A DNA stretch of 64,000 nt from Desulfobaccales bacterium (GTDB lineage Bacteria; Desulfobacterota; Desulfobaccia; Desulfobaccales; 0-14-0-80-60-11): positions 101,724-165,723 of the forward strand of contig JBAZPO010000005.1 of NCBI GenBank assembly GCA_041648175.1, in the 5' to 3' direction. Positions 23,913 to 46,566 of the stretch are shown piece by piece. A program made the position numbers and the translations under genes. The first letter of the stretch is position 1; each line of letters starts with the position of its first letter. A model generated the notes under the pieces. The model did not search any database and was not told where the DNA came from. It worked only from the letters and a program-made list of their open reading frames with translations.

Positions 23913-24033
23913 AAAGCTTGCACCAGGCCCCCAAAATTGTGCCCGCCAACAGCAGGCGGTGGGGGCAATGACCACCCCCACCCAGAGCATAGCCGCTATC
24001 CCCAGGCTCAACCGGGGCTTGCATCGACAACGA

Positions 24034-24495
24034 TCAGCGTTTCCGCCATGCCTCCCAGTTGGGGCGGCCCTGGGAATCCCGCAAGTGCAGAACATAATCC
24101 GCTTTGGTGAGTTCATAAGCGATCGCCTGCAGCTTCCCGTCTTTTGCCTTTTCGCACATCCCCTTGACCCGCACTTCGTCTCCGGGGGTGAGCGCGAACT
24201 CCTGGCGCTCCAAATACCAGACCGGGCCCAAACTCACATGCACCTGTCCCTGGGTCTTGGTGTCCATGATTATGGCCATACCGGGATACATGCCTTCTCC
24301 CAAACTCTCAGTGAGCACCTGCACCACCTTGCCGCTTTCGTCAAAGGGTTTGCAAACCGCCTTTACCGGACATAGATAGGCCGTATACGGACAAGGCCGG
24401 AAGCCCTGGCCCCGGCCCTGGGCTGAGGCTTGCAAGGGTAGCATGGTAAGCAGGGCCGCGGCCAGGCCAATAATGGTGATATAAAGTCGAAACAT
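24034..24495 (-). CDS. Small secreted protein, copy A (signal peptide, CPYTAYLCPVKAVC motif, OB-like C-terminal part)
   Basis: Signal-like LAAALLTMLPLQASA followed by QGRGQGFRPCPY. Near-identical paralog at 32261..32734. GGGAGG SD. Confidence 0.7.
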   Translation of the reverse strand: MFRLYITIIGLAAALLTMLPLQASAQGRGQGFRPCPYTAYLCPVKAVCKPFDESGKVVQVLTESLGEGMYPGMAIIMDTKTQGQVHVSLGPVWYLERQEFALTPGDEVRVKGMCEKAKDGKLQAIAYELTKADYVLHLRDSQGRPNWEAWRKR

Positions 24496-24519
24496 GATCT
24501 TTATCCTCCCGATTTGTAA

Positions 24520-25593
24520 TTAAAAAGCATAAACCATGGACAGCAACGGAGTTATATTGCCGGTGGTGTTCTTCCCTGCCAGGTCGAAGTTCACGCCCAG
24601 GGCCAGGGAGAACTTGTCCGTGGCCATGTATTCGATCCCCGGTAAGAAGGACACAAGCGCGGTGGGCTGGGCGTTGGCCTTGGACCCGATCAGCCGCCCC
24701 GCATCCCAGGTGCTGGTCAACTCCAACAGGGCCACCCATTTCTTGGTTATGGGATACTCCATCGCAAAGTTGGCGGTGATGAAATCCCGGGGATGGTTCC
24801 GCCTCTGTATGGGATTGCCTTCTTCATCCACCTCATCGGTAGTGTTATCGGTCTGGAGGGTATAATAGACGTTGCTATAAAAAATAAACGGCTTCAGATA
24901 CTTGGAGAGATTAAAGCCGGTGGTAAAGCCGTAAGTGCCCCCGCCGATGGCGTCGGTCCCCAATCGGCCAGGGTTAAGAAAGCGAAAGTGGCCGGTGGGG
25001 AACGTAGGGGTAAAGATGGCGCTCACTGTGGGTGCCGCTTGCGTCTCCTCCACCAGGCGATACTTGAAGGTCAGACTGATATCGCCCAAGCCCCCGAAAG
25101 AGGCGAAGCGTTCCCCATTCGGGCCGGGAGCATCGACATTACCGGCCCAGTTGTGAATATAAGGAATGACGGTGTAGACTTCAAGGTTATTGATGAGGCC
25201 GTAGGTAAACTTCAGGCTCATTCCCAAGGATTGAAAATCACCTCCCGCGGAGATTCTGCGCCAGGGACTGAAGTTATTGGTGGTAAAGCTTAAGCCCCCG
25301 GTGGGCTGAATGGCGAACTTCCCTTTTTCAATGGGGATGGCGGTATCAGTGATAATGGGGCCGAAGGTGGCCGGGCATTCGTCCTCTTTGGCTTCCTCCT
25401 TTTTCCCTTCATCCTTCGCTCCTTCCTGGCCCTCCGGATGGAAGCCTTCACCGCGGCCTTCAAGCTCCGAGGCGGTGTTGGCACCGGCCGCCGCTGGCCC
25501 CTCTTTTTCCCCGGCGGATATATTAGCCCAACCCGGCGCCGCCCACAGGGTCATGCCAAGGCACAGCAAGACGAAACCTGCTTTAACGTTCAT
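24520..25593 (-). CDS. Outer-membrane beta-barrel protein, copy A (MetA-pathway/phenol-degradation-like transporter family by pattern)
   Basis: Signal peptide. Acidic/lysine-rich linker EGQEGAKDEGKKEEAKEDEC. Alternating-hydrophobic strands. C-terminal LLSMVYAF with terminal Phe, typical of OMPs. Start moved to ATG 25593 (GGAAGGAGA SD). Confidence 0.8.
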   Translation of the reverse strand: MNVKAGFVLLCLGMTLWAAPGWANISAGEKEGPAAAGANTASELEGRGEGFHPEGQEGAKDEGKKEEAKEDECPATFGPIITDTAIPIEKGKFAIQPTGGLSFTTNNFSPWRRISAGGDFQSLGMSLKFTYGLINNLEVYTVIPYIHNWAGNVDAPGPNGERFASFGGLGDISLTFKYRLVEETQAAPTVSAIFTPTFPTGHFRFLNPGRLGTDAIGGGTYGFTTGFNLSKYLKPFIFYSNVYYTLQTDNTTDEVDEEGNPIQRRNHPRDFITANFAMEYPITKKWVALLELTSTWDAGRLIGSKANAQPTALVSFLPGIEYMATDKFSLALGVNFDLAGKNTTGNITPLLSMVYAF

Positions 25594-25739
25594 AACCATT
25601 CTCCTTCCCCTTCTATAAAAATTTTTTAGTTCAATCGGTTCAATCAATCAGGCAAGACCCGCCGGCAATCTTGCCCCGCTTTATGCTCCCCCTGATTCGT
25701 CGCCGGCACGAAGTCTTTGAGAAGTGGTGGTATTGAAGA

Positions 25740-26114
25740 TTACCCGGTATTGACCTGCTTTTTGGCCGTCTGGTCCGCATGAGACCGGCAAGCGCAATCC
25801 CGGCAGTTGCCGTTACATTGGCAGGCATCCTTGGAAGTTTCAGCAGTCTGGAGGATCCATTTCCCCGGCTCCGCGAGCAGGGCATGCTTTTTTGCCGCGA
25901 TTAATTTCCGTAAGCCCGCTTCCAGACTGGCCAGGGTATCTTCGTCAACTTCCCCGGCTTCCTGCAGGTCCACCACCAGTACCGAAAAGGCTCGGAAGCC
26001 GATCTGCGCTGCTCCCAAAATCTGCCTAACCACGCCGTCAGTGAGGGTTCCCCGGGGCGCCAACCGCAGACGCCCATTGGCTATCTCTACGAAGAGTTTC
26101 GAGTCAGTGGCCAT
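25740..26114 (-). CDS. Hypothetical protein, possibly STAS-like, with Cys-rich tail CQCNGNCRDCAC
   Basis: 124 aa. VLVVDLQEAGEVDEDTLASLEAGL resembles the STAS core. The C-terminus carries 5 Cys in 12 residues. The fold assignment is weak. Confidence 0.45.
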   Translation of the reverse strand: MATDSKLFVEIANGRLRLAPRGTLTDGVVRQILGAAQIGFRAFSVLVVDLQEAGEVDEDTLASLEAGLRKLIAAKKHALLAEPGKWILQTAETSKDACQCNGNCRDCACRSHADQTAKKQVNTG

Positions 26115-26189
26115 ATTTCACCTCAACGATCTCAGAGATCTGGTTGGAGATTTGTCGATAAATCGCCCAAAAGGGCCGTCAACTATGCT

Positions 26190-26280
26190 CATTGCCAAAA
26201 ATTTTTTCTTATTCACCCCTCCCTCTCCCACAAGTGGAGAGGAAAATTAGAGGAAAAAACTTTTGGCAATCGCTATATGC
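26190..26280. repeat. Repeat family B, MITE-like hairpin element, copy 1
   Basis: cATTGCCAAAA ... CCCTCTCCCACAAGTGGAGAGG ... aattagagg ... TTTTGGCAATcgctata. The outer arms and the inner GGAGAGG hairpin are both complementary. Second copy at 37901..37984. Confidence 0.75.
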
Positions 26281-26312
26281 TGCTCCTCCACTGTTCAAGG
26301 AATCTTTTGAGG

Positions 26313-27557
26313 CTATGCCTCGCAAATTTCGACCCCTTCGCATGACCCTGCCGGGTGCGCCAACTCCATCAAAGTTCTGGTAAGCGCGCCCACCCCCGTG
26401 TTGAGCATCAAGACACAAGGTTTATTCAGCTTTTTGCACCACTTCTTGGCGCAGTGATAGGCCTGGTGGCTGGTGCAGCTTATGGGGCAAATCACCACCT
26501 CCGCCTGCTTTACCAGGTTCACCAGGCGCGCCTGGCCGTTGCGGCAATCTCCATCATGGCGCAAGAAAATCCCCCCGAAATCCTGTTCCACCAGGCGGCG
26601 ATAATGGCTTTCCCGTCGCTCCGGACCACCAACCAGAAGGATGAGCTTGTTGCAGAACCGGCGGCATTTCTCCCCACTGGCCAGGGGGCAGGTCTGCTCA
26701 GGGGAGCCGCTGGCCTCGTAAGGAGCATCCAGGACCGGCGCTGGACATATGCCGGGTAGTTGCCTGACGGTCTCTTGCATGAGACGCATTTCCAGTTTTT
26801 CCCGGGTCCGTTTTTCCTGGCTCAGACGTGCGGTGAGCTCCCGGTTTGCCGCTCTCAGTTGGTGGATCTCCTGACCTGTGTTCAGGGAGACGAGTTCCTG
26901 CTCCAGGTGCGCCAATTTGCGCCCCAGGTCCGCAAGTTCGGCTTCTTTGTGGGTCAGGCGCCGTTTGTACTCTTCCCGCTCTATTTTCACCGCTTCCACC
27001 TGGCCGGTTAAGCGTTTCACCCGATCTTGCAGAAGCTCGTTCGTCTGCCGCAGCTGTCCATATTCCTTCAATTCGGCTCGGGCTTCGGCTCCCTGGAGGT
27101 GGGACATCATGTGAATATCCCCGAAAACCTCATTCAAAACGTTCTTCGGGGTGTCCTCGCGGGTGGTAATAGCATAGAAGGCCCCGGCGATTTGACCCTC
27201 TTTGAGGGCTTCCTGCCAGGCCAGGTTCAACTCCAGGCCCTCGCAGGCATCTATCCGAGTGATGGTCAGACGATATTTCCGATCCAAAAATTTCTGCACA
27301 TATTTAGCCACCGGAGGCAGCTTCCGGCAGGCCTCGATGATCCAGATGTGCAGTATATAGGCTGAGGTGCCTCCCACATACTTGAAGTGGCGAGCGATTT
27401 TCTGCGTCTCCTTGAGGGTCAGACACGTTCCCACCAGGGGGCAGAGGAAGCGGTCTATTTCGCCAAGGTTGTGACGGTTGCTTTTGAGTCCGGTCATGAC
27501 GGCAAATCCTGGGGTCGGGGAGCGCCTCAGGGCATCCCCCCGACCCATCAAATACAT
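26313..27557 (-). CDS. DUF2325-like C-terminal domain protein with central coiled coil and several Cys pairs
   Basis: C-terminus KLILLVGGPERRESHYRRL...AEVVICPISCTSHQAYHCAKKWCKKLNKPCVLM matches my memory of DUF2325. Heptad-rich middle (LQDRVKRLTGQVEAVKIEREEYKRRLTHKEAELADLGRKLAHLEQEL). Start uncertain (27557, or ATG 27497). Confidence 0.65.
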   Translation of the reverse strand: MYLMGRGDALRRSPTPGFAVMTGLKSNRHNLGEIDRFLCPLVGTCLTLKETQKIARHFKYVGGTSAYILHIWIIEACRKLPPVAKYVQKFLDRKYRLTITRIDACEGLELNLAWQEALKEGQIAGAFYAITTREDTPKNVLNEVFGDIHMMSHLQGAEARAELKEYGQLRQTNELLQDRVKRLTGQVEAVKIEREEYKRRLTHKEAELADLGRKLAHLEQELVSLNTGQEIHQLRAANRELTARLSQEKRTREKLEMRLMQETVRQLPGICPAPVLDAPYEASGSPEQTCPLASGEKCRRFCNKLILLVGGPERRESHYRRLVEQDFGGIFLRHDGDCRNGQARLVNLVKQAEVVICPISCTSHQAYHCAKKWCKKLNKPCVLMLNTGVGALTRTLMELAHPAGSCEGVEICEA

Positions 27558-27564
27558 TCAGCGT

Positions 27565-27771
27565 TTAACCAAAGATATCCATTTCCAGTTGCGGCCACTG
27601 CCTGATGGCCTCGTGCAGACGAATCTCCACATTATTCAGGTGATCCTTGAGGTCGGCCACCGTGGGGTTGTCATGCAGGCCGGGAACCTCTTGCGCCAGA
27701 TGGTCCACATAATGATGAATATTTTTGAGATCATCTTCCAAGGTCACCAGATTGATGATCATTTTCACCAT
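27565..27771 (-). CDS. Small His-rich helical protein, 68 aa, hypothetical
   Basis: Overlaps the upstream gene end by 7 nt and is 7 nt from the next start, so it is packed into the operon. Contains NIHHYVDH and LKDHLNN. Confidence 0.5.
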   Translation of the reverse strand: MVKMIINLVTLEDDLKNIHHYVDHLAQEVPGLHDNPTVADLKDHLNNVEIRLHEAIRQWPQLEMDIFG

Positions 27772-27926
27772 GACTTTTCTCCTTTGTCGGTCTTCTGCTG
27801 CCTACTCCCGCAGGTGTGGGCGTCACACCCCGGACAGAATCCTCGCTTTTTCCAGATGGAGCGATACAGTAGATAAATGGCCCCGACTATGATGGCTCCG
27901 GCCCAGAACAGATCATACCAGCTCAT
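27765..27926 (-). CDS. FeoB-associated Cys-rich small membrane protein
   Basis: MSWYDLFWAGAIIVGAIYLLYRSIWKKRGFCPGCDAHTCGS: one TM helix followed by CxxC. GGGAGG SD. ATG lies 1 nt after the feoB stop. The track ORF start at 28043 is an overlap artefact. Confidence 0.65.
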   Translation of the reverse strand: MSWYDLFWAGAIIVGAIYLLYRSIWKKRGFCPGCDAHTCGSRQQKTDKGEKSW

Positions 27927-27927
27927 A

Positions 27928-30132
27928 TCAACCTCCCAATCCCAGGAGCCTGCCGCCCTGATAGATGACCAGGGCCACTCCCCAGGCCAGGACCATCTGG
28001 TAAGCAAAGGCGACCCCGAACCATTTCCAGGTGCCGAACTCATCGCGAAAGGCTACCGCCACTATCATACAGGGCATGTACAGCAGCACAAAGGCCATGA
28101 AGGCATACGCGCTCAAAGGCGTAAAGGCTCCTTGAATAACTTTCTTTAAGGGTTTGGTTTCTTCTTTCTCTTCGGCAGAGAGCTTGGCCACGCCGAAGGA
28201 AGAAATGACATTTTCCCCCGCCTGCTTGGTGGCCGAAAGGAAGGAGACCCCGATTTCTTGCAGATCTTCCAGGAAGGTGGGAGGCTTCTCGTCTTCAGCC
28301 TTTTTCTCCTTGGGAAGGTAAATTTCCCCCATGGTCCCCACCACGATCTCCTTGGCGATGACGCCGGTGACGAGGGAGGAGGCCGCCTCCCAATTACCGA
28401 ATCCCAAGGGTTTAAACACCGGGGCGATGACGGTCCCGGCTTGGCCCAGGTAAGAGTCTTTCTTTTGTTCCACCCCCCAGGGCAGGTTCAGGAGGAACCA
28501 CACCAGGACGGACACGGCCAGGATATAGGTGCCGGCCTTGATGAGAAAGTGTTTGCCCTTCTCCCAGGTGTGGATCATCAGGCTCTTTAGGGTGGGCATG
28601 CGGTAGGGCGGCAGCTCCATGATGAAGAGAGGATTTTCTCCCTTGAACAGAGTCTTTTTGAACAGGATGCCCACCAACACCGCCATGACAATGCCCATGA
28701 CATATAGGGACCAGATGGCCGTGCCGGCCCGGCCGGGAAAGAAGGCCCCGGCGAACAGCACGTAAACCGGCAAGCGGGCGCCGCAAGACATCAAGGGGAT
28801 AAGCAGGGCGGTCAAAATCTTGTCCCGGGGATTTTCCAGGGTGCGGGTGGCGTAGACCGCGGGCACGTTGCAGCCGAACCCCAGGAGCAAGGGAATAAAG
28901 GACTTGCCGTGCAGACCCATGGAGTGCATGGCCCGGTCCATGACAAACGCGGCCCTGGCCATATAGCCGCTGCCTTCCAGGAAAGTAATAAAAAACATCA
29001 TCGCAAAGATTACGGGAATAAAGACGATGACAAAGCCGACGCCGGCCAACACGCCTTCGGTGGCCAGAGACACCGTCCAGTCCGGGGCCGCTACCAGGCC
29101 CAGCAGGGCTTCCGCCCAGCGCTTCAAAGGGCCGGTCACTAGGCCGTTCATCCAGTCGGCGTAAGGGTTCGACACATCGAAGGTGAGTTTGAACATCACC
29201 CACATGGCGGCCAGGAAGATCGGGATACCCAGGAAGCGGTGAAGCACGATCCGGTCGATCTTCTCCGTCAACTCCCGTTTCGTCGTGGTCTTCTTTTTCA
29301 GGACCTCCCTGGTAAGCCCGGAAGCCTGGGCATAGCGGGCGTCGCCCAGCAAGCTCTCAATATCATCCCCATGGGCCTCCTTCAGGTGCTTGGCGGCCCG
29401 GGAAATGAAGCTGCCTGTTCCCAGACCAGTTTCCTCCACTATTCGTGGGTCCGACTCCAGGAGTTTCAGGGCCAGCCACCGGGCGGGGTATCTTTCCACC
29501 AGGGCCGGGGAGTGCAGGCGGATTTCTTTGTCCACCTCAACGACCGCAGCTTCCAGGTCCTGGCCGTAGTTGAGGGGGCGAGGCGCATGAGCTTCGGGGT
29601 TGTCCCCCACCTCCAGCACCGCCTCCATGAGGGCCGTTAACCCTTCCTTCTTGGTGGCCACGGTGGGTATTACCTTGATCCCCAAGGTCTCTTCTATGAG
29701 AGCGGGATTGATTTCCCAGCCCTTGTTCCGGGCTTCGTCATAGATGTTCAGGGCCATGACCACCGGCAGGCCCAGCTCCAGCATTTGCACCGTCAGGTAA
29801 AGGTTGCGCTCCAGATTGGTGGCGTCCACCACGTTCAGGATGACATCGGGGCGCGCCTCTACCAGGTAATCCCGGGCGATAACTTCCTCCTCGGAATAGG
29901 GGCTCAGGCTGTAGGTGCCGGGCAGATCCACCAGCCGGACGCGGCGGCCCTGGAACTCCAGGGTGGCCTCTTTTTTCTCCACGGTCACCCCGGGCCAGTT
30001 GCCCACCTGGAGCCGGGTGCCGGCCAGACCGTTGATGAGGGTGGATTTTCCGGAATTGGGGTTGCCCGCCACCGCGACGGTGAGGACTTTGGCGGGCTCG
30101 GGGTGCGCGAGCTTGACTGCGGCCTGGCTCAT
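27928..30132 (-). CDS. feoB: Ferrous iron transporter FeoB
   Basis: N-terminal G-domain VAVAGNPNSGKSTLINGLAG, DLPGTYSL and NIYD, followed by a ~470-aa polytopic membrane domain. Confidence 0.95.
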   Translation of the reverse strand: MSQAAVKLAHPEPAKVLTVAVAGNPNSGKSTLINGLAGTRLQVGNWPGVTVEKKEATLEFQGRRVRLVDLPGTYSLSPYSEEEVIARDYLVEARPDVILNVVDATNLERNLYLTVQMLELGLPVVMALNIYDEARNKGWEINPALIEETLGIKVIPTVATKKEGLTALMEAVLEVGDNPEAHAPRPLNYGQDLEAAVVEVDKEIRLHSPALVERYPARWLALKLLESDPRIVEETGLGTGSFISRAAKHLKEAHGDDIESLLGDARYAQASGLTREVLKKKTTTKRELTEKIDRIVLHRFLGIPIFLAAMWVMFKLTFDVSNPYADWMNGLVTGPLKRWAEALLGLVAAPDWTVSLATEGVLAGVGFVIVFIPVIFAMMFFITFLEGSGYMARAAFVMDRAMHSMGLHGKSFIPLLLGFGCNVPAVYATRTLENPRDKILTALLIPLMSCGARLPVYVLFAGAFFPGRAGTAIWSLYVMGIVMAVLVGILFKKTLFKGENPLFIMELPPYRMPTLKSLMIHTWEKGKHFLIKAGTYILAVSVLVWFLLNLPWGVEQKKDSYLGQAGTVIAPVFKPLGFGNWEAASSLVTGVIAKEIVVGTMGEIYLPKEKKAEDEKPPTFLEDLQEIGVSFLSATKQAGENVISSFGVAKLSAEEKEETKPLKKVIQGAFTPLSAYAFMAFVLLYMPCMIVAVAFRDEFGTWKWFGVAFAYQMVLAWGVALVIYQGGRLLGLGG

Positions 30133-30356
30133 AGCTGCACCTCCACCCCGATGCCCGCGGCCTCGCTTTTTCGCAAGGACAGGCGGTAGTTTTTCACGAT
30201 GATTTCAATGGGGTCTCCCAGGGGTGCGACTTTTTCCACCTTCACCTCCACGCCTTTGAGCACGCCCATATCCATCAAGCGACGCTTCATGGGACCGATG
30301 GCCCCGATAGTGGTGATTGTGCCCCGTTGACCGGGTCGTAACATTGCCAGATTCAT
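30129..30356 (-). CDS. feoA: FeoA family protein
   Basis: 75 aa. LRPGQRGTITTI...RRLMDMGVLKGVEVKVEKVAPLGDPIEI. Four-nt overlaps with both neighbours. Confidence 0.85.
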   Translation of the reverse strand: MNLAMLRPGQRGTITTIGAIGPMKRRLMDMGVLKGVEVKVEKVAPLGDPIEIIVKNYRLSLRKSEAAGIGVEVQL

Positions 30357-30601
30357 TCCCCTATCCTCCTGACGCTAACTTTCATGGCCACGCCCCGCCC
30401 TAAGGCGATGCGGGAGTCGTCCACCCGCACCAACAGGGAGCCGTGGCCGGAGTTGCTCAACATCTCCACGGTCTTGCCGCAGCGCAGGCCCATGTCTTCC
30501 AGGCGGCACATACATTTGCATCTCTGACAGCCATGGGAGCCGCCCCGAATTTCCATTACCCGGGCCCTTTCGCCCGACCCCAAAAGTCCTAACGGCATCA
30601 T
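30353..30601 (-). CDS. feoA: FeoA family protein with a Cys-rich insertion (GCQRCKCMC)
   Basis: FeoA SH3-like pattern (GERARVMEIRGG...RLEDMGLRCGKTVEML...LLVRVDDSRIALGRGVA), interrupted by a CxxCxCxC insert. Confidence 0.8.
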   Translation of the reverse strand: MMPLGLLGSGERARVMEIRGGSHGCQRCKCMCRLEDMGLRCGKTVEMLSNSGHGSLLVRVDDSRIALGRGVAMKVSVRRIGE

Positions 30602-30624
30602 TAATCTACCTCCAAATTATTGAG

Positions 30625-30643
30625 ATTGAGACTTTGTCTCAAT
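30625..30643. promoter_or_regulatory. Perfect 8-3-8 palindrome ATTGAGAC-TTT-GTCTCAAT, candidate Fur box in front of feoA
   Basis: Read directly. Lies in the 69-nt fur-feoA spacer, 24 nt upstream of the feoA ATG. A related site overlaps the fur promoter. Confidence 0.5.
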
Positions 30644-30670
30644 CATATGGCAAAAAAAAGGGGGCACACC

Positions 30671-31111
30671 TCACCGTTGCCGAGCCCGGCAGTCTACACA
30701 GTAACCGTAAATTTCCAACTTGTGCCCAGTAACCTCAAAATCATGGGCCTGCCCGAGGCGCTGTTCCGCCTCCTCCACGCTGCCATTCCGGAACTCGATG
30801 ACCTTGCGGCAGCCCAGACAGCGCAGGTGGCAGTGGTGCTCATGTCCGTAAATGTGTTCATAGTGCATGTGCCCATCCTCGACAAAGACTTCCTGCACCA
30901 GGCTGGACTCCACCAGTAAGGCCATGGTGCGGTACACCGAAGCCCGGGAAATTCGCAGGCCTTTCTGACGCAGGCGCATAATAAGCTCTTCCACATCAAA
31001 GTGGTCATGATTGGCAAAGACCTCCGCCAGGATCGCCTCTCGTTCCGGCGTGGCTCGCATGCCCCTTTGGGCCAAAAATTCTTGGAAGACTTCGCTCTCG
31101 GGCTTCATCAT
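30671..31111 (-). CDS. fur: Fur-family metalloregulator
   Basis: Winged helix (RISRASVYRTMALLVESSLV). Metal sites HMHYEHIYGHEHHCHLRCLGC and CxxC (YCVDC). Start set to ATGATG at 31111, because the track start 31150 is the TTG of a TTGACA -35 hexamer. Confidence 0.85.
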   Translation of the reverse strand: MMKPESEVFQEFLAQRGMRATPEREAILAEVFANHDHFDVEELIMRLRQKGLRISRASVYRTMALLVESSLVQEVFVEDGHMHYEHIYGHEHHCHLRCLGCRKVIEFRNGSVEEAEQRLGQAHDFEVTGHKLEIYGYCVDCRARQR

Positions 31112-31116
31112 CTGCA

Positions 31117-31150
31117 ATTGAGACTCTATCTCATTAGTAATTATTGTCAA
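31117..31150 (-). promoter_or_regulatory. Candidate sigma-70 promoter of fur (TTGACA-16 nt-TAGAGT) overlapped by a Fur-box-like palindrome AATGAGATAGAGTCTCAAT
   Basis: Minus strand reads ccTTGACAataattactaatgagaTAGAGTctcaattgcagATGATG. The palindrome at 31117..31135 shares the ATTGAGA/TCTCAAT half-sites with 30625..30643. Confidence 0.45.
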
Positions 31151-31419
31151 GGATTTTTTTTCGGTTTACTCGGTTTACCCTCAAAATGCAATACTGTATT
31201 TTATCTTCGGAATCACTTGAGGAGTTATTCAGATAAGAGAGAATTTTTGCTACAGAGAAATGGCTTGGAGAAAATTGCAGGCCGCTGCCCTATCCCAAAA
31301 TTTTTACGCAGGCCTAAACACTTGCTCTATCCGATATATATATGGGCGAGACCATTTTCAGCCTCGCCCCGCATGCCAGCCCTGAGCCGTTCCGGGTCTC
31401 GATCTGTCGCACCGCTTGC

Positions 31420-32202
31420 TTATTTCGCCACCGGCCAATCGGTAAACTGCGTCCAAAGCACAGCCCCGTATTCGGCGTCTTTTTTCGTACCATCCGTATG
31501 TTTGATGGCCTGTTTTTCCGTGGTCAGGGCGGAGAAGCCCCACCAGCCCGCCTTGGGCACCGCAAAGGTAAAGACGCCATTCTTATCGGTTTTCACCACC
31601 TGGGCGACGAAATAGTCATTGGGCGCGGTCACCTTCTTTCCGGCGTTCCAGTACTCCACTTCCACATCGGCGTTGGCTACGGTCTTACCTTTGAATTTCA
31701 GCACCCCCTGGAAGACATTGCCAGCATAGAGGGCGAAGGGTCTGGTTAACGGCACGATCTCGGCCTTTAAACCCACTTCCTCGTCCCAACCGTCTTCGGC
31801 CCCGAACGCGGCCACATAGGTCTTGGTCTGGTGAATGATATATTTGTTTTCCGCTGGCTCCCAGTAAGGCGTGGGATCGAAATAGAAAGCGTAAACCCCC
31901 GGCTTTTTCAAAGCGTAAGTGGTTTTCCAGGCCTGCTTATCCAGAACCTTGGTTTCCTGGAGGGTGCTTAGGAGATCGGTTTTTTCTTTCCCGGCCAGTA
32001 CGCCGAACTTCTTGGGTTTGGCCATGTCCATGCCGGTCTGTTCAAAGGGGTGGCAGAATGCCAGGGTCAACCCCAGGTTAGCGTCGTCGCCCTGCATCAC
32101 CATGGCTTTGTCCGGCAGGATCACGCCGAAATGCGCCTGGCAAACCCCGGCCAGGCCCAGTACGAGTATCAGGCAGAAAACTAACGTGAAGAAACGTTTC
32201 AT
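31420..32202 (-). CDS. DUF4198-like periplasmic protein (NikK-like nickel/cobalt uptake component by pattern)
   Basis: Signal peptide MKRFFTLVFCLILVLGLAGVCQA followed by HFGVILP. Beta-rich, with a transthyretin-like segment VLKFKGKTVANADVEVEYWN. GGAGGGAAG SD before ATG 32202. The track extension to 32328 overlaps the upstream gene. Confidence 0.75.
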   Translation of the reverse strand: MKRFFTLVFCLILVLGLAGVCQAHFGVILPDKAMVMQGDDANLGLTLAFCHPFEQTGMDMAKPKKFGVLAGKEKTDLLSTLQETKVLDKQAWKTTYALKKPGVYAFYFDPTPYWEPAENKYIIHQTKTYVAAFGAEDGWDEEVGLKAEIVPLTRPFALYAGNVFQGVLKFKGKTVANADVEVEYWNAGKKVTAPNDYFVAQVVKTDKNGVFTFAVPKAGWWGFSALTTEKQAIKHTDGTKKDAEYGAVLWTQFTDWPVAK

Positions 32203-32260
32203 AACTTCCCTCCGTTCCAGGTTGATTAATAGGCACGGCCTGCGGGGCATTTTGGGGGGA

Positions 32261-32734
32261 CTAATTCCCCATCTTCCGCCAGGCCTCCCAGTTGGGGCGG
32301 CCCTGGGAATCCCGCAAGTGCAGAACATAATCCGCTTTGGTGAGTTCGTAAGCGATCACCTTGAGCTTCCCGTCTTTTTCCTGTTCGCACATCCCCTTGA
32401 CCCGCACTTCGTCTCCGGGGGTGAGCACAAACTCCTGGCGCTCCAAATACCAGATCGGGCCCAAACTCACCTGCACCTGGCCCCGGGTCTTGGTGTCCAT
32501 GATTATGGCCATGCCCGGGTACATACCCTCTCCTAAACTCTCAGTGAGCACCTGCACCACCTTGCCGCTTTCGTCAAAGGGTTTGCAAACAGCCTTTACC
32601 GGACAGAGATAGGCCGTGTACGGACAAGGCCGGAAGCCCTGGCCGCGGCCCTGGCTCCACGCCAGGGGAGGCAACGCCCCAACCAAGAGCGCCATGACCA
32701 ACAGAGCCGTTAAAACAGATTGCCACCGTTTCAT
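32261..32734 (-). CDS. Small secreted protein, copy B (paralog of 24034..24495)
   Basis: Mature regions almost identical: QGRGQGFRPCPYTAYLCPVKAVCKPFDESGKVVQVLTESLGEGMYPGMAIIMDTKT. AAGGAGG SD. Confidence 0.75.
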   Translation of the reverse strand: MKRWQSVLTALLVMALLVGALPPLAWSQGRGQGFRPCPYTAYLCPVKAVCKPFDESGKVVQVLTESLGEGMYPGMAIIMDTKTRGQVQVSLGPIWYLERQEFVLTPGDEVRVKGMCEQEKDGKLKVIAYELTKADYVLHLRDSQGRPNWEAWRKMGN

Positions 32735-32758
32735 ATGATGGTCCTCCTTTAGTCTTTA

Positions 32759-33859
32759 TTAGAATGCATACACCATGGACAAGAGCGGCGTGAGCGCGGC
32801 ATCGGTGTTTTTGCCCGCCAGGTCGACATTCAACCCCAGGGCCAGGGAGAATTTATCCGTGGCCATGTACTCGATGCCCGGTGCGACCGAGATCAAGGCC
32901 TCCGGGGGCAGATTGCCCTTGTGGCCGAACAGACGCCCGCCGCTCCAATAACTGGTGAGTTCCAGGAGCGCCACCCATTTTTTGGTGATGGGATATTCCG
33001 CCGCCAGGTTCAGGGTGACAAAGTCCCGGGGAAAGTTGCGCAACTGGCTGGCCACGGGGTCGCCCTCCACCAGGTTGCCGTTTTCATCCAAAACCAGCCC
33101 GGCTCTATCTTCCCTGGAATCGTAAGCAGTTTGCATAGTATACCAGATGTTGGCGTAAAATATGAATGGTTTCACAAACTTGGACATATTTAAGCCGGTG
33201 GTGAAGGCGTAGGCCCCGCCTCCCAGTTGATCGGTTCCCAAGCGCCCGGGATTGAGGTGGCTGAAGTGGCCGCTGGGGAAATCGGTGGTAAAGAGCGCGG
33301 TCACCGTGGGCCTGGTCTCGGTCTCTTCCACCAGGCGGTATTTGAAGGTCAAGTTGATATCGCCGAGGCCGCCGAAATTGCCGGAGCGCTCTCCATTGGG
33401 CCCCGGCGCATCGACACTGCCGGCCCAGTTGTGGACATAGGGAACCACCGCAAACACCTCCAGGTTGTTCCACAGGCCGTAAGTGAATTTCCAATCCATG
33501 CTATAAGTCTTGAAATTGCCCCCTGCCGACACCCGCCGCCAGCTCTGGGTCAAGCTGTTGTTGACGAAGCTGAGCCCAAAGGTGGGCTGAATGGCGAACT
33601 TCCCTTTTTCAATGGGGATGGCGGTGTCAGTGATGATGGGGCCGAAGGTGGAGGGGCATTCATCCTCTTTGGCTTCCTCCTTTTTCCCTTCATCCTTGGC
33701 TGCTTCCTGGCCCTCCGGCTGGAAGCCTTCGCCGCGGCCGCCAGTCTCTTCGGAGGCGCCGGAGTCCGGCGCGGCCCATCCCGTCAAGGGCATGGCCAGT
33801 GCCATCACCAGCAGCGCGACCAGGCAGGGCCAAATCAGGGCCTGACTTGATGCTCTCAT
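32759..33859 (-). CDS. Outer-membrane beta-barrel protein, copy B (paralog of 24520..25593)
   Basis: Same architecture and the same C-terminal LLSMVYAF. AAGGAGG SD. AT-rich promoter-like region upstream (33860..34110). Confidence 0.8.
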   Translation of the reverse strand: MRASSQALIWPCLVALLVMALAMPLTGWAAPDSGASEETGGRGEGFQPEGQEAAKDEGKKEEAKEDECPSTFGPIITDTAIPIEKGKFAIQPTFGLSFVNNSLTQSWRRVSAGGNFKTYSMDWKFTYGLWNNLEVFAVVPYVHNWAGSVDAPGPNGERSGNFGGLGDINLTFKYRLVEETETRPTVTALFTTDFPSGHFSHLNPGRLGTDQLGGGAYAFTTGLNMSKFVKPFIFYANIWYTMQTAYDSREDRAGLVLDENGNLVEGDPVASQLRNFPRDFVTLNLAAEYPITKKWVALLELTSYWSGGRLFGHKGNLPPEALISVAPGIEYMATDKFSLALGLNVDLAGKNTDAALTPLLSMVYAF

Positions 33860-34110: not shown

Positions 34111-34782
34111 CTAACCCTTGTCCTCTTGGGGTTGACAGCAGTGTTCATGGACGTGGCAACAGTGCTTGACGGTGTGCTCCAAAAACCCATCTTCATGCGA
34201 CACAATCATGTAGGCGATGTCCAAATCATTAAGAATGTGAGCGAGGCGGTGCTTGGTTGTCTCATCCAAGCCCGAAGTGGGCTCATCCAGCAGAAGGAGC
34301 TGCGGTTGCATGGCCAGGACGGTGGCCAGGGAGACCAACTTCTTTTCACCCCCGGAGAGCTTATACGTCACCCGGTCTTCGAAGCCGTACAGACCCAACC
34401 CCGCCATGGTCTCCCGCGCGATCTCGATGGCCTCGGCCGGCGACTTTCCCTGGTTCAAGGGACCGAAAGCCACGTCTTCCATAACGGTGGGACAGAAGAG
34501 CTGGTCGTCGGCATGTTGAAACAGGAGACCCACCTTTTGCCGGACCTGCACAAAATCCTTGGCTTTCGTAACCTCCTGTCCCAGGATAATTATGCTCCCC
34601 ACCTGGGGGCGCAACAGCCCCATGATCAGGTGCAAGAGGGTGGTCTTGCCGCAGCCGTTGGGACCGATGAGGCCAATATGTTCGCCCGGGAGAAGCTGAT
34701 AATTAAAGTCCTGAAAAACCGGCCGGGAGGCCCCGGGGTACTTAAAGGTGATGTTCCGCAACTCAATCAATGGTTCACTCAT
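34111..34782 (-). CDS. cbiO: ECF/CbiO-type ABC transporter ATPase
   Basis: Walker A GPNGCGKTT, signature LSGGEKKLVSLA, Walker B LLLLDEPTSGLD. ATG 34782 forms an ATGA overlap with the cbiQ stop. The track start 34869 is an upstream extension. Confidence 0.9.
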   Translation of the reverse strand: MSEPLIELRNITFKYPGASRPVFQDFNYQLLPGEHIGLIGPNGCGKTTLLHLIMGLLRPQVGSIIILGQEVTKAKDFVQVRQKVGLLFQHADDQLFCPTVMEDVAFGPLNQGKSPAEAIEIARETMAGLGLYGFEDRVTYKLSGGEKKLVSLATVLAMQPQLLLLDEPTSGLDETTKHRLAHILNDLDIAYMIVSHEDGFLEHTVKHCCHVHEHCCQPQEDKG

Positions 34783-35561
34783 GGTAGCCTCATAGCAAGA
34801 TGGGGCGCCGCCAACTCCAAAGAGAGCAACACGGCCAGCGCCAGTATTGATACCGCCACAAATATCCAATCGCGACTTTGCCAGGTAAAGGTCCGCAGGC
34901 TATAGAAGACTCCGTGAAAGCCGCGGCACAGCATGGCTTGAAAAACCCGGTCGGCCCGGTCATAGCTGCGCACCAGCAACATGGCCGCCAGATAGGCGTA
35001 GGAGCGATATGTGTGGAGATTGGTGCGGGGCTGAAATCCCCGGATCTTCATGGCTTGAACCAGCCGTTCAAATTCCTGCTCAAAGACATAGAGGTAACGG
35101 TAGGTAAACAGCAGTAAATGACATAACTTGCCGGGGATGCGCAAATTATGCATTGCCTGTCCTAACGTAACGACCGGCACGGTGGCGACCAGGGCAATCA
35201 GGCCGATGATGATGGCGTTGGACTTCAGGGTGATCAAACCGGTAAAGATCAGGCCCTGCCGGGTGGCGGCCAAAGGCCCGAGCCGCAGAACCACCTCGCC
35301 CGGATAGGTCAGGGGCAACACGACCCAGAGGAAGAAAATGAAGCTGTTTACCACCAGGAGCCGGACCAGCACTTGTTTTACCGGCAGACGCGCCAGCGCC
35401 AGCCAGATCAGGGCCAGTGCCAACCCGGCCAGGGCCACTGTATAGCTCTTGGCCACAGCCATAAGGACAGCAAAGAGGGCGGCCACCACGATTTTGCCCC
35501 GGGGGTCGAGGCGGTGGACCGGAGAGGCCCCTTCGGCAAAAGGTTCCTGGATGGCACTCAA
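34779..35561 (-). CDS. cbiQ: ECF transporter transmembrane T component (CbiQ/EcfT)
   Basis: SPVHRLDPRGKIVVAALFAV opening and a conserved arginine-containing coupling helix region (MKIRGF). TTG start. Confidence 0.85.
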   Translation of the reverse strand: MSAIQEPFAEGASPVHRLDPRGKIVVAALFAVLMAVAKSYTVALAGLALALIWLALARLPVKQVLVRLLVVNSFIFFLWVVLPLTYPGEVVLRLGPLAATRQGLIFTGLITLKSNAIIIGLIALVATVPVVTLGQAMHNLRIPGKLCHLLLFTYRYLYVFEQEFERLVQAMKIRGFQPRTNLHTYRSYAYLAAMLLVRSYDRADRVFQAMLCRGFHGVFYSLRTFTWQSRDWIFVAVSILALAVLLSLELAAPHLAMRLP

Positions 35562-35576
35562 GGATTTTTCTTCCCC

Positions 35577-35680
35577 CTGTTACGAAAAAGTTCAGAGTTC
35601 AAGGTTGAGTGGCGGGCGGGGACGCCCGCCCTACCGGATTTTTCATGGTTTTGAGAGAGCGGCAAGCTCATGAGCGACTG
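35577..35680 (+). repeat. Repeat family A, full copy 1
   Basis: ctgttacgaaaaagttcagagttcaaggttgagtggcgggcggggacgcccgccctaccggatttttcatggttttgagagagcggcaagctcatgagcgactg is colinear with 56211..56319. It fills the nikL-like/cbiQ spacer and overlaps the last codons and stop of the nikL-like gene. Confidence 0.85.
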
Positions 35681-36309
35681 CTTTGGAAGTAAGCCCACAG
35701 GCCGAAGAGGCCCAGAATATAACCGATGCCACCGATGATATCAGCGGGAGTTGTGCGGTGGATGGTCAATTCGGCGAGCATCTCCTTGATGGGTGCGAGC
35801 TGGCGTTCCAGAGATTTATTCACGGCGGCTTCCAAGGCTTGCTGATCTAGGCCGGCGGTTTTGGTCTCCGAAGCTGCCGGAGGAGTTGCCGGAATTGGCA
35901 CGGGGGCAGTGGCCTTCCCTGGCGTGGTTCCGGTCAAATAGCTGTCCGCCTTGAGCAGCCATTTACCCCGGTGGCCCATGGCCGCTTCCACCACGATATT
36001 CAGATCCAACTTCTGGGCCGCGGCTGCGGCAGGAATTTTAAAGGAAAACTTTCCCTGGTCATCGGTTTGGCCGGTTAAAAGTTCGCTGCCGGTTTTTGGA
36101 TCCAGAACCAGGACATTGCCCTGGCGCACCGGCGTATCAGGGATAAACTTGCTTTCCGTGTGGATGGCGCCGCCTTCGGCATAGGCGAAGACCAGCACCC
36201 GGTGGGCCAGAGCCGGGGACGTGAAAACGCCAAGGGCCAGGAGCACCAGGACTCCTTGAACCCCGAGAACCAGGAGATGCTGTCTCCACCAGAACCACTT
36301 TTTAGGCAT
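35668..36309 (-). CDS. Bitopic accessory component of the Ni/Co ECF importer (NikL/CbiN-like: TM, periplasmic beta domain, TM)
   Basis: N-terminal TM LLVLGVQGVLVLLALGVF. HRVLVFAYAEGGAIHTESKF and a DDQGKFSF transthyretin-like periplasmic part. C-terminal TM IIGGIGYILGLFGLWAYF resembles the CbiN C-terminus. Sits in the cbiN position between cbiM and cbiQ. Confidence 0.6.
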   Translation of the reverse strand: MPKKWFWWRQHLLVLGVQGVLVLLALGVFTSPALAHRVLVFAYAEGGAIHTESKFIPDTPVRQGNVLVLDPKTGSELLTGQTDDQGKFSFKIPAAAAAQKLDLNIVVEAAMGHRGKWLLKADSYLTGTTPGKATAPVPIPATPPAASETKTAGLDQQALEAAVNKSLERQLAPIKEMLAELTIHRTTPADIIGGIGYILGLFGLWAYFQSSRS

Positions 36310-36907
36310 AGATTTCCTCCAACATTTCGGGACGGACTTTTTTAAGGAACTGGAAGATAAACAGCGTAATGATGCCCTCGATGATCATTATGGGTATGTG
36401 CGCCAAGAGAACCAGTTCGGCCACTTTGAGAAAAGCCTGACCGGTGGTGATTAAGGCCGTGGCCACCAGCAAACCGCTTAACAACATGGCCAGGGCCCCG
36501 CAGGCAAAGGCCGCCACCGCGGCAATGACTCCTTGACCGCGCAAGAACCTGCGAAAGACAAAAAAGCAGATGACTGCGGGCGCGGCCATAGTGACTGTAT
36601 TCACCCCCAACACTGTCAGGCCTCCGAACTGGAAGAGCAGGGCCTGCAGGAACAGGGCGATGAGGATGGCGGGGAAGGCCATCCAGCCCAGCAGCAGCCC
36701 CATAAGGCCGTTGAGTACCAGGTGCGCACCCACCGGGCCTACCGGCACATGGATGAGCGAGGCCACGAAGAACGCCGCGGACAGTATGGCTACCCGGGGA
36801 ATGGCCTCATAATCGAGTTTTTTCAGGCCGATGGCGCATCCTACCACCGCCAGCCCAGCCCCTCCGGCTAATACCACCGGAGAGAGCACTCCTTCAGAAA
36901 TATGCAT
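36302..36907 (-). CDS. cbiM: ECF substrate-capture component CbiM/NikM
   Basis: Starts MHISEGVLS, the conserved metal-ligating N-terminus of CbiM/NikM. About 6 TM helices. Confidence 0.9.
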   Translation of the reverse strand: MHISEGVLSPVVLAGGAGLAVVGCAIGLKKLDYEAIPRVAILSAAFFVASLIHVPVGPVGAHLVLNGLMGLLLGWMAFPAILIALFLQALLFQFGGLTVLGVNTVTMAAPAVICFFVFRRFLRGQGVIAAVAAFACGALAMLLSGLLVATALITTGQAFLKVAELVLLAHIPIMIIEGIITLFIFQFLKKVRPEMLEEIYA

Positions 36908-37900: not shown

Positions 37901-37984
37901 CATTGCCAAAAGTCCCCTCACCCTACCCTCTCCCACAAGGGGAGAGGAGAATTAGAGAACAAAACTTTTGGCAAACGCTATACG
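37901..37984. repeat. Repeat family B, copy 2
   Basis: cATTGCCAAAAgtcccctcaccctaCCCTCTCCCACAAGGGGAGAGGagaattagagaacaaaacTTTTGGCAAAcgctatacg is colinear with 26190..26280. Confidence 0.8.
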
Positions 37985-38021
37985 TCATTGCGCATATGGG
38001 CAAGGCGGAGGCGGAGAGGCG

Positions 38022-38336
38022 ATGCAAGGGCTTGAACTGATAAAAAATCTTGCTGAACTCGATCAAGAGGTCGCCGAAAAGGTTGAGGAAACCCGCCGGT
38101 CCGCCGAGGACCGGGTCAATCGCGCCGAAGCCGAGAGTCAGCGCCTCCTGGCCGAGGCCGACGCTCAGATCCGCCGGCTGGAAGAAGTGTCGCGGACGCA
38201 AATGGCCGAGGTCAGCGCCAGGCTGACCGAGGACGCCCGCCAGCATGCCGCCGCGGAGCAAGAACGCCTGCGCAGCCAGGCTGTGCCAAACCTCGATCGC
38301 GCCGTCGAATTCATCCTCTCAGAGGTTATGCCGTGA
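38022..38336 (+). CDS. A/V-type ATPase peripheral-stalk subunit (G/H-like)
   Basis: 104-aa all-helical, charge-rich protein in first position of the operon. GGCGGAGAGG SD before ATG 38022. Confidence 0.6.
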   Translation: MQGLELIKNLAELDQEVAEKVEETRRSAEDRVNRAEAESQRLLAEADAQIRRLEEVSRTQMAEVSARLTEDARQHAAAEQERLRSQAVPNLDRAVEFILSEVMP

Positions 38337-40309: not shown

Positions 40310-40378
40310 TTGCAGCATATTGGCAGGGGACCCGAACGGTAACTCTAAAAGTCTTATAAAAACTAAGGAGGAGAGTTG

Positions 40379-40690
40379 ATGAAAGCAAGGTTTCTTTTCA
40401 TTCTGGGGCTTCTCTTCGCATGTGCCGCAATGTTCGCGCCGCAGGTCATGGCCGCCGAGGGAACGAACATCACGTCGGATAAAGGATTGGCGGCAATTGG
40501 CATAGGGTTGGCCGTCGGACTGAGCGCCCTGGGAACCGGCCTGGCGCAGTCCCGGATCGGACCGGCGGGGCTCGGCGCCGCTGCGGAAAAACCTGAAATG
40601 CAGGGTCTGGCGCTTATCTTCTTACTCTTGCCTGAGACCTTGGTGATCTTTGGATTGGTCGTAGCGTTCATGCTCATAGGGCGGCTGTAA
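40379..40690 (+). CDS. atpK: A/V-type ATPase proteolipid subunit K (c)
   Basis: GLAVGLSALGTGLAQSRIG hairpin helix 1 and LIFLLLPETLVIFGLVVAFML helix 2 with the carboxylate. AAGGAGGAGAG SD. Confidence 0.85.
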   Translation: MKARFLFILGLLFACAAMFAPQVMAAEGTNITSDKGLAAIGIGLAVGLSALGTGLAQSRIGPAGLGAAAEKPEMQGLALIFLLLPETLVIFGLVVAFMLIGRL

Positions 40691-41253
40691 TGTCGAAGCT
40701 GGAGGAGATTCTCCAGCAAGAGGCTGAGGCTGAGATCGATGCGATCCTGGCACAGGCGGATTCAAGGGCCGCCAAGATTGTCAGCGAGGCGCAAAGCCGC
40801 GCCTCGGCCAAGGTAGCAGCCCACCAAAAGAAGATCGAGGCTGAGGCTCACGCTGCAACCCGGCAGGGCCAAAGTACGGCCGAACTCATTGTCTCCAAGG
40901 CCCGCATACAAGCCAAAGGGGAGATGATGGACCTGCTGCGACAGAAGGTATTGCTGGCGTTAGAAGAAACTCCCTCCAAACCGGGTTACGGCGAGGTTCT
41001 CCAGGCGCTGGCCGAGGAGGCCATGGGTGTTACTGAAGGCGCGGAGGCAGTGGTGGTGCACCCTCACGATAAGGAGAAATTGAATGATTGGGCGATGCAC
41101 CGCGGGCTCGCACTGCAAACCGACCCGGAACTTCGCCTTGGGGTGCGGATTGTGAGCCGGATCGGCAAGAATGTGGAAAACACTTTGCACGAGCGGTTAC
41201 ATCGCGCCTGGGGCACGCTTGCCCCCGAGGTGACCAAGCTGCTCTGGGAGTGA
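40690..41253 (+). CDS. atpE: A/V-type ATPase subunit E
   Basis: Long N-terminal helix (LEEILQQEAEAEIDAILAQADSRAAKIVSEAQ) plus a globular C-terminus. Correct operon position. Confidence 0.8.
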   Translation: MSKLEEILQQEAEAEIDAILAQADSRAAKIVSEAQSRASAKVAAHQKKIEAEAHAATRQGQSTAELIVSKARIQAKGEMMDLLRQKVLLALEETPSKPGYGEVLQALAEEAMGVTEGAEAVVVHPHDKEKLNDWAMHRGLALQTDPELRLGVRIVSRIGKNVENTLHERLHRAWGTLAPEVTKLLWE

Positions 41254-41262
41254 GGGAAGCGT

Positions 41263-42246: not shown

Positions 42247-42569
42247 AGATTGCGGTTCTGACTGATCCTGAATCCGCGGCGGGATACCGCCTCGGCGGCC
42301 TGGAAGTGGCATTGGCCCATGACCCGGCCGAAGCCCGGGAGGTGTTGGCGCGTCTGGTTCAGACAGGAGACTATGCACTCGTAATAGTCAATATGACGTT
42401 GTTGCCGGACCCTTACCAGGCAGTTAAAAGGGAGCTGCGCGGCCGGGATCTCCCGGTCCTGCTGGCGGCCCCGGCGCATCGTGCTGCGGTCACCGTCGCC
42501 GGCGAAGACGCCGAGGCGTACCTGCGACAGTTGATCAAGGAAACCATGGGCTACGAGATTAAGCTTTAG
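42243..42569 (+). CDS. atpF: A/V-type ATPase subunit F
   Basis: VKIAVLTDPESAAGYRLGGLEV opening. GTG 42243 overlaps the subunit C stop. The track start 42156 is an out-of-context extension. Confidence 0.8.
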   Translation: MKIAVLTDPESAAGYRLGGLEVALAHDPAEAREVLARLVQTGDYALVIVNMTLLPDPYQAVKRELRGRDLPVLLAAPAHRAAVTVAGEDAEAYLRQLIKETMGYEIKL

Positions 42570-42638
42570 AGGCCGGAACCTGGGCCGCGGGAGTCAGCGA
42601 ACTTGGGACTTCCGCAACCCGCTCACATCGGAGGAAAA

Positions 42639-46489: not shown

Positions 46490-46564
46490 TGGAGGCGGCA
46501 TCCAGATTCGAACTGGAGAATAACGGTTTTGCAGACCGCTGCCTTACCTCTTGGCTATGCCGCC
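46490..46564 (-). tRNA. tRNA-Cys (GCA)
   Basis: Reverse complement GGCGGCATAGCCAAGAGGTAAGGCAGCGGTCTGCAAAACCGTTATTCTCCAGTTCGAATCTGGATGCCGCCTCCA folds as a cloverleaf. Anticodon loop CTGCAAA, T-loop TTCGAAT, encoded CCA. Confidence 0.9.
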
Positions 46565-46566
46565 TC

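Follow-up and report, generated by a model that had tools for sequence, protein, structure and literature searches.

How can two neighbouring copies of a gene pair be nearly identical in some stretches and barely alike in others? The question is raised by a 64,000-nt stretch of a Desulfobaccales bacterium contig (JBAZPO010000005.1; hereafter the window, within which all positions are counted), where a gene for an outer membrane protein (OMP) is twice followed by a gene for a small secreted protein. Both pairs lie on the minus strand in the same order and orientation, about 8.2 kb apart: pair A comprises OMP_A (24520-25593, 357 aa) and small_A (24034-24495, 153 aa), and pair B comprises OMP_B (32759-33859, 366 aa) and small_B (32261-32734, 157 aa). 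A first-pass annotation had placed the open reading frames (ORFs) at these same coordinates and had read the two copies as a recent duplication or as gene conversion still in progress. We propose, with a probability of about three in four, that they are ancient paralogs of a conserved two-gene module, later patched by gene conversion of B-type sequence into copy A over two short tracts.

The two copies were aligned with MAFFT and compared in sliding windows of 60 nt. Identity along the unit is strongly mosaic, with values from 30 to 98%. The mature-coding part of the small gene is 86–98% identical, and a block at the N-terminus of the OMP 83–96%. The signal peptide of the small protein, together with the 24-nt spacer between the genes, reaches 30–48%, the barrel 31–81% with one 13-codon indel, and the OMP signal peptide and the outer flanks on both sides 31–50%, which bears out the earlier remark that signal peptides and parts of the barrel differ. 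Homology ends at the small-gene stop codon on one side and inside the OMP signal-peptide region on the other, so that the unit measures about 1.43 kb, in line with the ~1.4 kb first given. Within the small genes, BLAST aligns positions 24041-24421 with 32274-32654 over 381 nt at 93.96% identity (23 mismatches, zero gaps). The longest exact matches between A and B are 65, 56, 45, 43 and 35 nt long, and each of the identical runs quoted in the first-pass annotation occurs exactly twice, at 24054/32287 in the small genes and at 25303/33584 in the barrel genes. Four families of direct repeats link the units, at spacings of 8233–8281 nt. As proteins, OMP_A and OMP_B are 69% identical.

The age of the copies was assessed from synonymous divergence (dS, synonymous substitutions per synonymous site; Nei-Gojobori method, with 95% intervals from a codon bootstrap). 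Between A and B, the barrel is saturated, with a dS of 1.78 (1.18 to infinity), and values are also high in the OMP signal region (1.0) and in the small-gene signal peptide (2.6). In two regions, the mature-coding part of the small gene and the N-terminal extension of the OMP, dS is 0.20 (0.10–0.33 and 0.06–0.39, respectively). The bootstrap intervals of the proportion of synonymous differences in these two tracts do not overlap with that of the barrel.

Orthologs of both copies were found on metagenome contigs. L001 and L002 carry an A-type pair, the L001 OMP being 90% identical to OMP_A in protein sequence; L003 carries a B-type pair between cbiO and the DUF4198 gene, and L004 is also of B type. 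When A, L001, B and L003 were aligned, the windows in the signal, barrel and spacer regions supported the grouping by orthology (AA'|BB') at 10–33 informative sites per 90 nt, against 0–1 sites for rival patterns, and in both similar tracts this orthology signal is essentially absent. Neighbor-joining (NJ) trees of the family place the barrels of A/L001 and of B/L003/L004 in separate deep clades, whereas the small proteins of A, B, L001, L003 and L004 form a single tight clade. By these comparisons the copies are anciently diverged paralogs in their barrels, in both signal peptides and in the spacer between the genes. Over the unit as a whole they are not each other's closest relatives: the barrel, spacer and signal peptide of A go with L001 and with a further contig, L050, and those of B with L003 and L004. 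The barrel types occur in related genomes at unlinked loci with independent histories, an outcome that by the first-pass annotation's own standard speaks against its reading.

A map of the module in related genomes, made by tblastn over 46 GTDB loci and 28 metagenome loci of at least 4 kb (out of 57), tells how two such pairs may have come to be neighbours. The order OMP then small gene holds in nearly all mapped loci that reach far enough upstream. Over ~75 related loci, the importers that the pair accompanies are Feo, NikMLQO-DUF4198 or CbiMQO, and its surroundings are of four recurrent kinds: fur-feoA-feoA-feoB-(DUF2325)-pair, in some loci with DUF4198 and in others not; nikM-L-Q-O-pair-DUF4198 or nikM-L-Q-O-DUF4198-pair; pair-CbiM(PDGLE)-CbiQ-CbiO with CbiK upstream; and CbiK...pair. 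The window has the common nik-pair-DUF4198 operon followed by the common fur-feo-pair operon. None of the ~70 related loci from other genomes holds two pairs, and a metagenome scan yielded no two-pair locus and no sequence above 85% protein identity. We therefore infer a juxtaposition of two operons, not a local duplication. In Desulfobaccales-like bacteria the module travels with divalent-metal importers of the inner membrane, and in the present genome a nikMLQO-pair-DUF4198 operon and a fur-feoAAB-DUF2325-pair operon, set head to tail, leave the two modules 8.2 kb apart in direct orientation.

If the copies are that old, what made parts of them alike? The first tract covers the mature-coding part of small_A (24041-24421, minus strand, 381 nt; B copy at 32274-32654), and L050 provides the control. 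This contig has an A-type OMP 3' end, spacer and signal peptide, and its flanks are 92% and 88% identical to A; its mature region matches A at 78%, no better than it matches other members of the family. In that region A, L001, B and L003 are mutually 91–94% identical. The trees conflict accordingly. In the flanks (OMP 3' end, spacer and signal), NJ bootstrap values of 100% support both (A, L001, L050) and (B, L003, L004), and in the mature region {A, L001, B, L003} separates from {L050, L004, L012} at 100%. Likewise, dS between A and L050 rises from 0.22 in the signal peptide and flank to 1.08 in the mature part, and between A and L001 it is uniform at 0.15 across signal, mature part and barrel. 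The ends of the tract fall within two blocks of nucleotides that hardly vary among the eight sequences compared and encode QGRGQGFR and GRPNWEAW. Since A and L001 nest within the B/L003/L004 type here, the direction of transfer is from B type into A. Moreover, the uniform A-L001 divergence and the divergent L050 place the event later than the parting from L050 and earlier than that from L001.

The second tract is shorter (159 nt) and lies in the N-terminal extension of OMP_A (25300-25458, minus strand), with its B copy at 33581-33739; it runs from GRGEGF through an E/K-rich linker and ECPATFGPIITDTAIPIEKG to QPT. Here the B copy of the same genome is the nearest known relative of A (94%), ahead of L003 (89%), with L001 at 76% and every other sequence at 84% or less. 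Over the next 450 nt the relation is reversed (A-L001 94%, A-B 68%). In keeping with this, dS between A and L001 is 1.45 in the extension as against 0.15 in the barrel. Two histories fit: conversion of tract 2 in the lineage of the window, close to or following the split from L001, or joint conversion of both tracts with a later loss of the second in L001.

Taken together, low dS and tree conflict at 100% bootstrap support conversion for two tracts; a recent duplication, the other option named in the first-pass annotation, is rejected. The copies are paralogs, the boundaries of the tracts, the dS contrast and the conflict between trees are clear, and transfer went from B type into A. Two short stretches thus appear to have been overwritten by non-reciprocal homologous recombination, which would have copied B-type sequence into copy A over tract 1, before the window and L001 lineages parted and after the split from L050, and over tract 2 at about the same time or somewhat later, an event absent from L001; barrels, signal peptides and spacer would have been left untouched. 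The linked B copy on the same chromosome may have been the donor, and its proximity may have favoured the exchange. The suggestion that conversion is ongoing is not borne out: tract dS (~0.20) is comparable to that between the orthologs A and L001 (0.15), no identical run exceeds 65 nt, and a second record of the genome is identical. The last detectable exchange is therefore old, of roughly the same age as the split from L001.

Several points weigh against this reconstruction. Both tracts have a dS of 0.20 with wide intervals, so that either may be the earlier, and it may be the extension of L001 that was replaced. For tract 1, the B gene of L003 is no farther from A than is the B copy of the same genome (dS 0.20 in both cases), and the NJ tree slightly favours (A, L001, L003), at 79%; the genome's own B is therefore no more than a candidate donor for this tract. 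The trees are NJ trees from short sequences. In addition, L001 and L003 derive from separate metagenomes.

The same equidistance and the same 79% grouping are what would be seen had the B-like tracts reached A in DNA from a related strain or species, through transformation or horizontal gene transfer followed by homologous recombination. A comparison of different metagenome-assembled genomes (MAGs) likewise brings out small genes and barrels at odds with each other: L030 and L031 have small genes that are 95–100% identical and barrels at 63–83%. We nevertheless consider such an import unlikely. In tract 2, no known sequence comes closer to A than the B copy of its own genome (94%, as against 89% or less for any other), a direct-repeat partner 8 kb away is the simplest donor, and B-type DNA from outside should rather have recombined with the B locus, whose flanks it matches too.

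A history without any recombination, in which strong constraint, including constraint on synonymous sites through codon bias or RNA structure, kept the small gene and the OMP extension alike, fares much worse. The small protein is indeed highly conserved (mean column identity 78%, 49 invariant columns), and the tract ends coincide with invariant motifs. Constraint of this kind, however, did not prevent tract 1 from diverging in L050 (dS 1.08) next to A-type flanks (0.22), nor the extension from reaching a dS of 1.45 between the orthologs A and L001, and in four other MAGs with two unlinked pairs the small genes are just 66–70% identical; we regard this account as very improbable. Equally little can be said for a recent duplication of the whole 1.4-kb unit followed by fast divergence of the signal peptides and exposed barrel parts, which was the first of the two options in the first-pass annotation. 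It would explain the shared gene order and orientation and the two highly similar stretches, but the synonymous sites of the barrel are saturated and those of the signal peptides far diverged (1.78 and 1.0–2.6), A groups with L001 and B with L003 by orthology, and each barrel type has orthologs elsewhere. Furthermore, divergence is not concentrated in predicted loops, and a tandem pair is seen in 0 of ~70 related loci of other genomes, in which both single-pair operon types are common. Although the window comes from a MAG contig, an assembly chimera that made two paralogs mosaic can practically be set aside, as the tracts are 94% and not 100% identical, an A-type flank with a B-like small gene is seen independently in two JGI assemblies (L001 and L002), and the second assembly record, L108, is identical over 20.5 kb.

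Partial conversion in copy A is apparently not an isolated case, segment exchange between paralogs recurring in the family with the small gene affected here and the barrel in another genome. Over 741 locus pairs, barrel identity and small-gene identity correlate weakly (r = 0.27), and the window's A-B comparison is among the top outliers (z = 3.2). In the four MAGs with two unlinked pairs, the small genes are not homogenised. The mirror image is found in MAG CAWKEQ01, where the barrels of L020 (8930-10426) and L037 (4404-5963) are 87–97% identical in nucleotide sequence, the small genes 46–75% and the signal/extension regions 36–51%, which indicates a putative barrel-specific conversion. The discordance between L030 (8928-10462) and L031 (8951-10435) shows that exchange of module segments is visible between genomes too.

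What do the two genes encode? In the small protein, a signal peptide precedes a mature part that is strongly conserved. The conservation values quoted above come from aligning 25 homologs; GRGQGFR, at the N-terminus of the mature protein, and four cysteines are among the invariant columns. A precomputed assignment to PF26390 (MamS_MamX) exists for a protein of a Desulfobaccales MAG that is 100% identical to small_A, for all 120 listed homologs, for small_B as called in L108 and for genes on related contigs. A local Pfam search of the small proteins, in a copy that apparently lacks the model, gave no PF26390 match, and the NCBIfam MamS match (E = 9e-4, 19 bits against a cut-off of 200) and the Pfam OB-fold match (E = 0.016–0.05) are weak. 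The AlphaFold2 (AF2) model built from the 25-sequence alignment has a pLDDT of 54, too poor for a fold search; at that confidence it shows, apart from the signal peptide, mainly strands and a single short helix. A profile search of the PDB returned noise only (best E = 0.035). An OB fold has been predicted in MamS and MamX (PMC3905215). The proteins described here share with these the precomputed PF26390 assignment and an iron-related gene context, and would resemble them in a mostly beta structure with one short helix; small_A and small_B are here called MamS_MamX-like, and small_A tentatively OB-fold-like. They differ in having a cleavable signal peptide as sole anchor, no magnetochrome domains and no magnetosome island, and in the conserved Cx6Cx5C...C pattern. 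A distant homolog (35% identity) was noted in Photobacterium sp. MCCC 1A19761 (L047, 6164-16041), after genes for a cytochrome c, an HMA-domain P-type ATPase and a cupredoxin-like protein and before a gene for a 640-aa major facilitator superfamily (MFS) transporter; this small homolog with its MFS gene recalls the MamX-MamZ pairing of magnetotactic bacteria.

The OMPs are barrels of the COG4313/Phenol_MetA_deg type. PF13557 (Phenol_MetA_deg) matches OMP_A with 43.8 bits and OMP_B with 22.2 bits (cut-off 22). The AF2 model of OMP_A has a pLDDT of 68, with barrel blocks mostly in the 80s; by our reading of the model there are 12 strands, and residues 19-74 are disordered. With this predicted model as query, the best Foldseek matches in the PDB were FapF (5O65/5O67) and the COG4313 channel Pput2725 (4RL8), at a target-normalised TM-score of ~0.75 and with E = 1e-11 to 1e-13 for 4RL8 and 5O65. 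Points of likeness to the COG4313 channels (Pput2725, TcpY and SphA), taken together with the structurally related FapF, are the PF13557 match and a predicted 12-strand barrel with a conserved N-terminal segment before it, ECPxTFGPIITDTAIPIEKG. Whereas characterised members are implicated in the uptake of hydrophobic molecules or in amyloid export, the genes of the subfamily precede a MamS_MamX-like gene and adjoin Feo, Nik or Cbi importers, and their products carry a disordered acidic N-extension of ~50 residues, often with GRGEGF. The first-pass annotation had seen specialisation in the divergence of exposed parts. One large indel of 13 residues does fall in predicted loop 4, but identity between A and B on the AF2 topology amounts to 72% for strands, 63% for predicted external loops and 82% for periplasmic turns, and the difference between strands and external loops is not significant (Fisher p = 0.19). 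Moreover, the Feo, Nik and Cbi contexts are scattered over the barrel tree, so that a clean iron-versus-nickel specialisation of barrel types is unsupported.

One motif is common to the two proteins. The small protein invariably carries GRG[QE]GF[RQH]P where its mature part begins (24400-24420 in A, 32633-32653 in B), and across the family about half of the partner OMPs have it too, in their disordered N-extension (25441-25458 and 33722-33739 here). Given that the shared motif lies in exactly the homogenised parts, the sequences suggest that the mature small protein and the OMP N-extension may interact there.

Both pairs sit next to metal importers, all of whose genes are on the minus strand. 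A nickel/cobalt importer of the energy-coupling factor (ECF) type lies immediately upstream of pair B: nikM/cbiM (36302-36907; NCBIfam CbiM, 285 bits, and Pfam CbiM), nikL (35668-36309; NikL family NF058648, 176.5 bits), cbiQ (34779-35561; TIGR02454, 143 bits) and cbiO (34111-34869; NCBIfam match). OMP_B follows directly after nikO/cbiO, and the DUF4198 gene, which starts 37 nt beyond small_B, is in the same string (31420-32202; PF10670, 210.8 bits) and encodes a NikK-like periplasmic metal-binding protein. NCBIfam and Pfam scores for the importer genes and DUF4198 are above the cut-offs. A Feo importer with Fur comes next, comprising fur (30671-31150; Pfam FUR), two feoA genes (30353-30601 and 30129-30356; Pfam FeoA) and feoB (27928-30132; Pfam FeoB_N, the G domain, with Gate and FeoB_C). 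The string continues with a FeoB-associated Cys-rich gene (27765-27926; weak Pfam FeoB_associated match), a 68-aa ORF (27565-27771), DUF2325 (26313-27557; PF10087, 76 bits) and a 124-aa ORF (25740-26114), the last three lying between feo and OMP_A, which is the last-but-one gene of this fur-feo-DUF2325 string. Pfam thus recovers the fur-feo block that the pairs had been said to bracket. The gene order 68-aa ORF/DUF2325/124-aa ORF recurs in L018, L022 and L098. A third copy of the pair does not occur within the window.

The second assembly record from ENA, L108, is an identical copy of the genome, matching window positions 22261-42734 (20.5 kb) at 100%. It was the sole match in an exact-protein look-up with small_B, and the same look-up with small_A had no match on record. 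It confirms the order of the Nik/Cbi genes, supplied the gene calls for DUF4198, fur, both feoA genes and feoB, and has both pairs arranged as in the window. In L001, the pair stands directly after the FeoB-associated gene, from which it follows that the 2.1-kb segment with the 68-aa ORF, DUF2325 and the 124-aa ORF is an indel between close relatives; homology between A and L001 reaches ~45 nt upstream of the OMP start on one side and the small-gene stop codon on the other (window 25594-25740 and 23913-24033 compared with L001 1-327 and 1885-2011). In L014 (7085-13241) and L041 (7078-10408), a CbiK gene of the cobalt chelatase family lies upstream of the pair, with a CbiM-PDGLE fusion, CbiQ and an ABC ATPase downstream. 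A few kb past nikM in the window, a V-type ATPase operon (I, c, E, AC39, F, A) lies on the opposite strand (~38000-42734; L108 1-4713), and two tRNA genes lie beyond it at 46493-46641.

Gene neighbourhood and family names indicate that the module probably serves metal uptake, and it may carry metal ions (Fe2+, Ni2+/Co2+) from the outer membrane towards the importers, or pass them on. For NikMQO, Rodionov et al. (2004, PMC545781) proposed NikK and NikL as additional periplasmic parts, and the DUF4198 family has been characterised as a periplasmic Zn-binding protein, Zcp (PMC12663993). Pair B sits between nikO and the DUF4198 (NikK-like) gene of just such a NikMLQO operon, but barrel and MamS_MamX-like genes are not described as parts of these systems in PMC545781 or PMC12663993, and a search of the literature for a module of this composition found no paper describing it. 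It is conceivable, if doubtful, that the barrel and the MamS_MamX-like protein form an undescribed TonB-independent relay for divalent transition metals from the outer membrane through the periplasm, plugging into whichever importer is co-encoded (Feo, NikMLQO-DUF4198 or CbiMQO), with the co-homogenised parts as partner interface. Were this so, conversion of one interface part would have selected for conversion of the other.

Against a role in metal uptake it must be said that characterised COG4313 channels have been linked to hydrophobic substrates (PMC4493636), and that neither pair has a Fur or NikR box of delta-proteobacterial type nearby. Upstream of either pair, scans found neither the Fur box TGAAAATNATTTTCA, with three or fewer mismatches allowed, nor the NikR box GTGTTAC-N13/14-GTAACAC. 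The sole good Fur-box match in the region (TGATGATCATTTTCA, 2 mismatches) is at 27753-27767, where the FeoB-associated gene meets the 68-aa ORF, and thus not upstream of fur, feoA or the pairs. Scans for sigma-70 promoters and terminators gave matches at chance level, and an Rfam scan returned no riboswitch, the two tRNAs being its sole matches.

Partial gene conversion between paralogous OMP loci is a well-known and ordinary process, and it is the module that is uncharacterised. The closest parallel is the concerted evolution by gene conversion of the Helicobacter pylori OMP genes babA/babB/babC, homA/homB and sabA/sabB (PMC3960876, PMC4552749). As in those genes, exchange was non-reciprocal and left mosaic genes with sharp identity boundaries and other segments divergent. 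Here, in contrast, homogenisation went furthest in the small periplasmic partner and in the barrel's periplasmic N-extension, and not at the OMP gene's ends. The host is a free-living anaerobe with no link to antigenic or adhesin variation, and the exchange is old (dS 0.2), without frequent switching.

The first-pass annotation had also suggested that the copies, as direct repeats, could mediate loss or amplification of the block between them. Direct repeats of 381 nt at 94% identity could support RecA-dependent deletion or amplification of a block of ~7.8 kb, and such events are possible in principle for the fur-feo block. Among the ~70 related loci from other genomes, 0 had two pairs or the cbiO-OMP_B...small_A-GAF junction of the predicted chimera. 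Unequal crossing-over in a window-like array was considered as a source of the F-P-K arrangements seen in L004, L012 and L018, but this stays speculative, several multi-step scenarios fitting equally well. A separate direct repeat of 65 nt was noted in intergenic DNA at 26213-26277 and 37918-37982 (89% identical; two copies in the window, 0 expected by chance), with a palindromic core, CCCTCTCCCAC-AAGN-GGAGAGGA; it may be a small element resembling repetitive extragenic palindromic (REP) sequences or miniature inverted-repeat transposable elements (MITEs).

The similarity of the two copies should thus not be read as a sign of recent duplication or of instability of the fur-feo block. The value of the case lies in a conversion that could be dated and given a direction with unusually clean controls, and, since segment exchange is repeated in the family, single-gene trees will mislead functional assignment. 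Conserved at more than 70 loci of uncultured Desulfobaccales/Syntrophobacterales-like bacteria, beside importers for iron, nickel and cobalt, the two-gene module is a concrete candidate for outer-membrane metal passage in these anaerobes.

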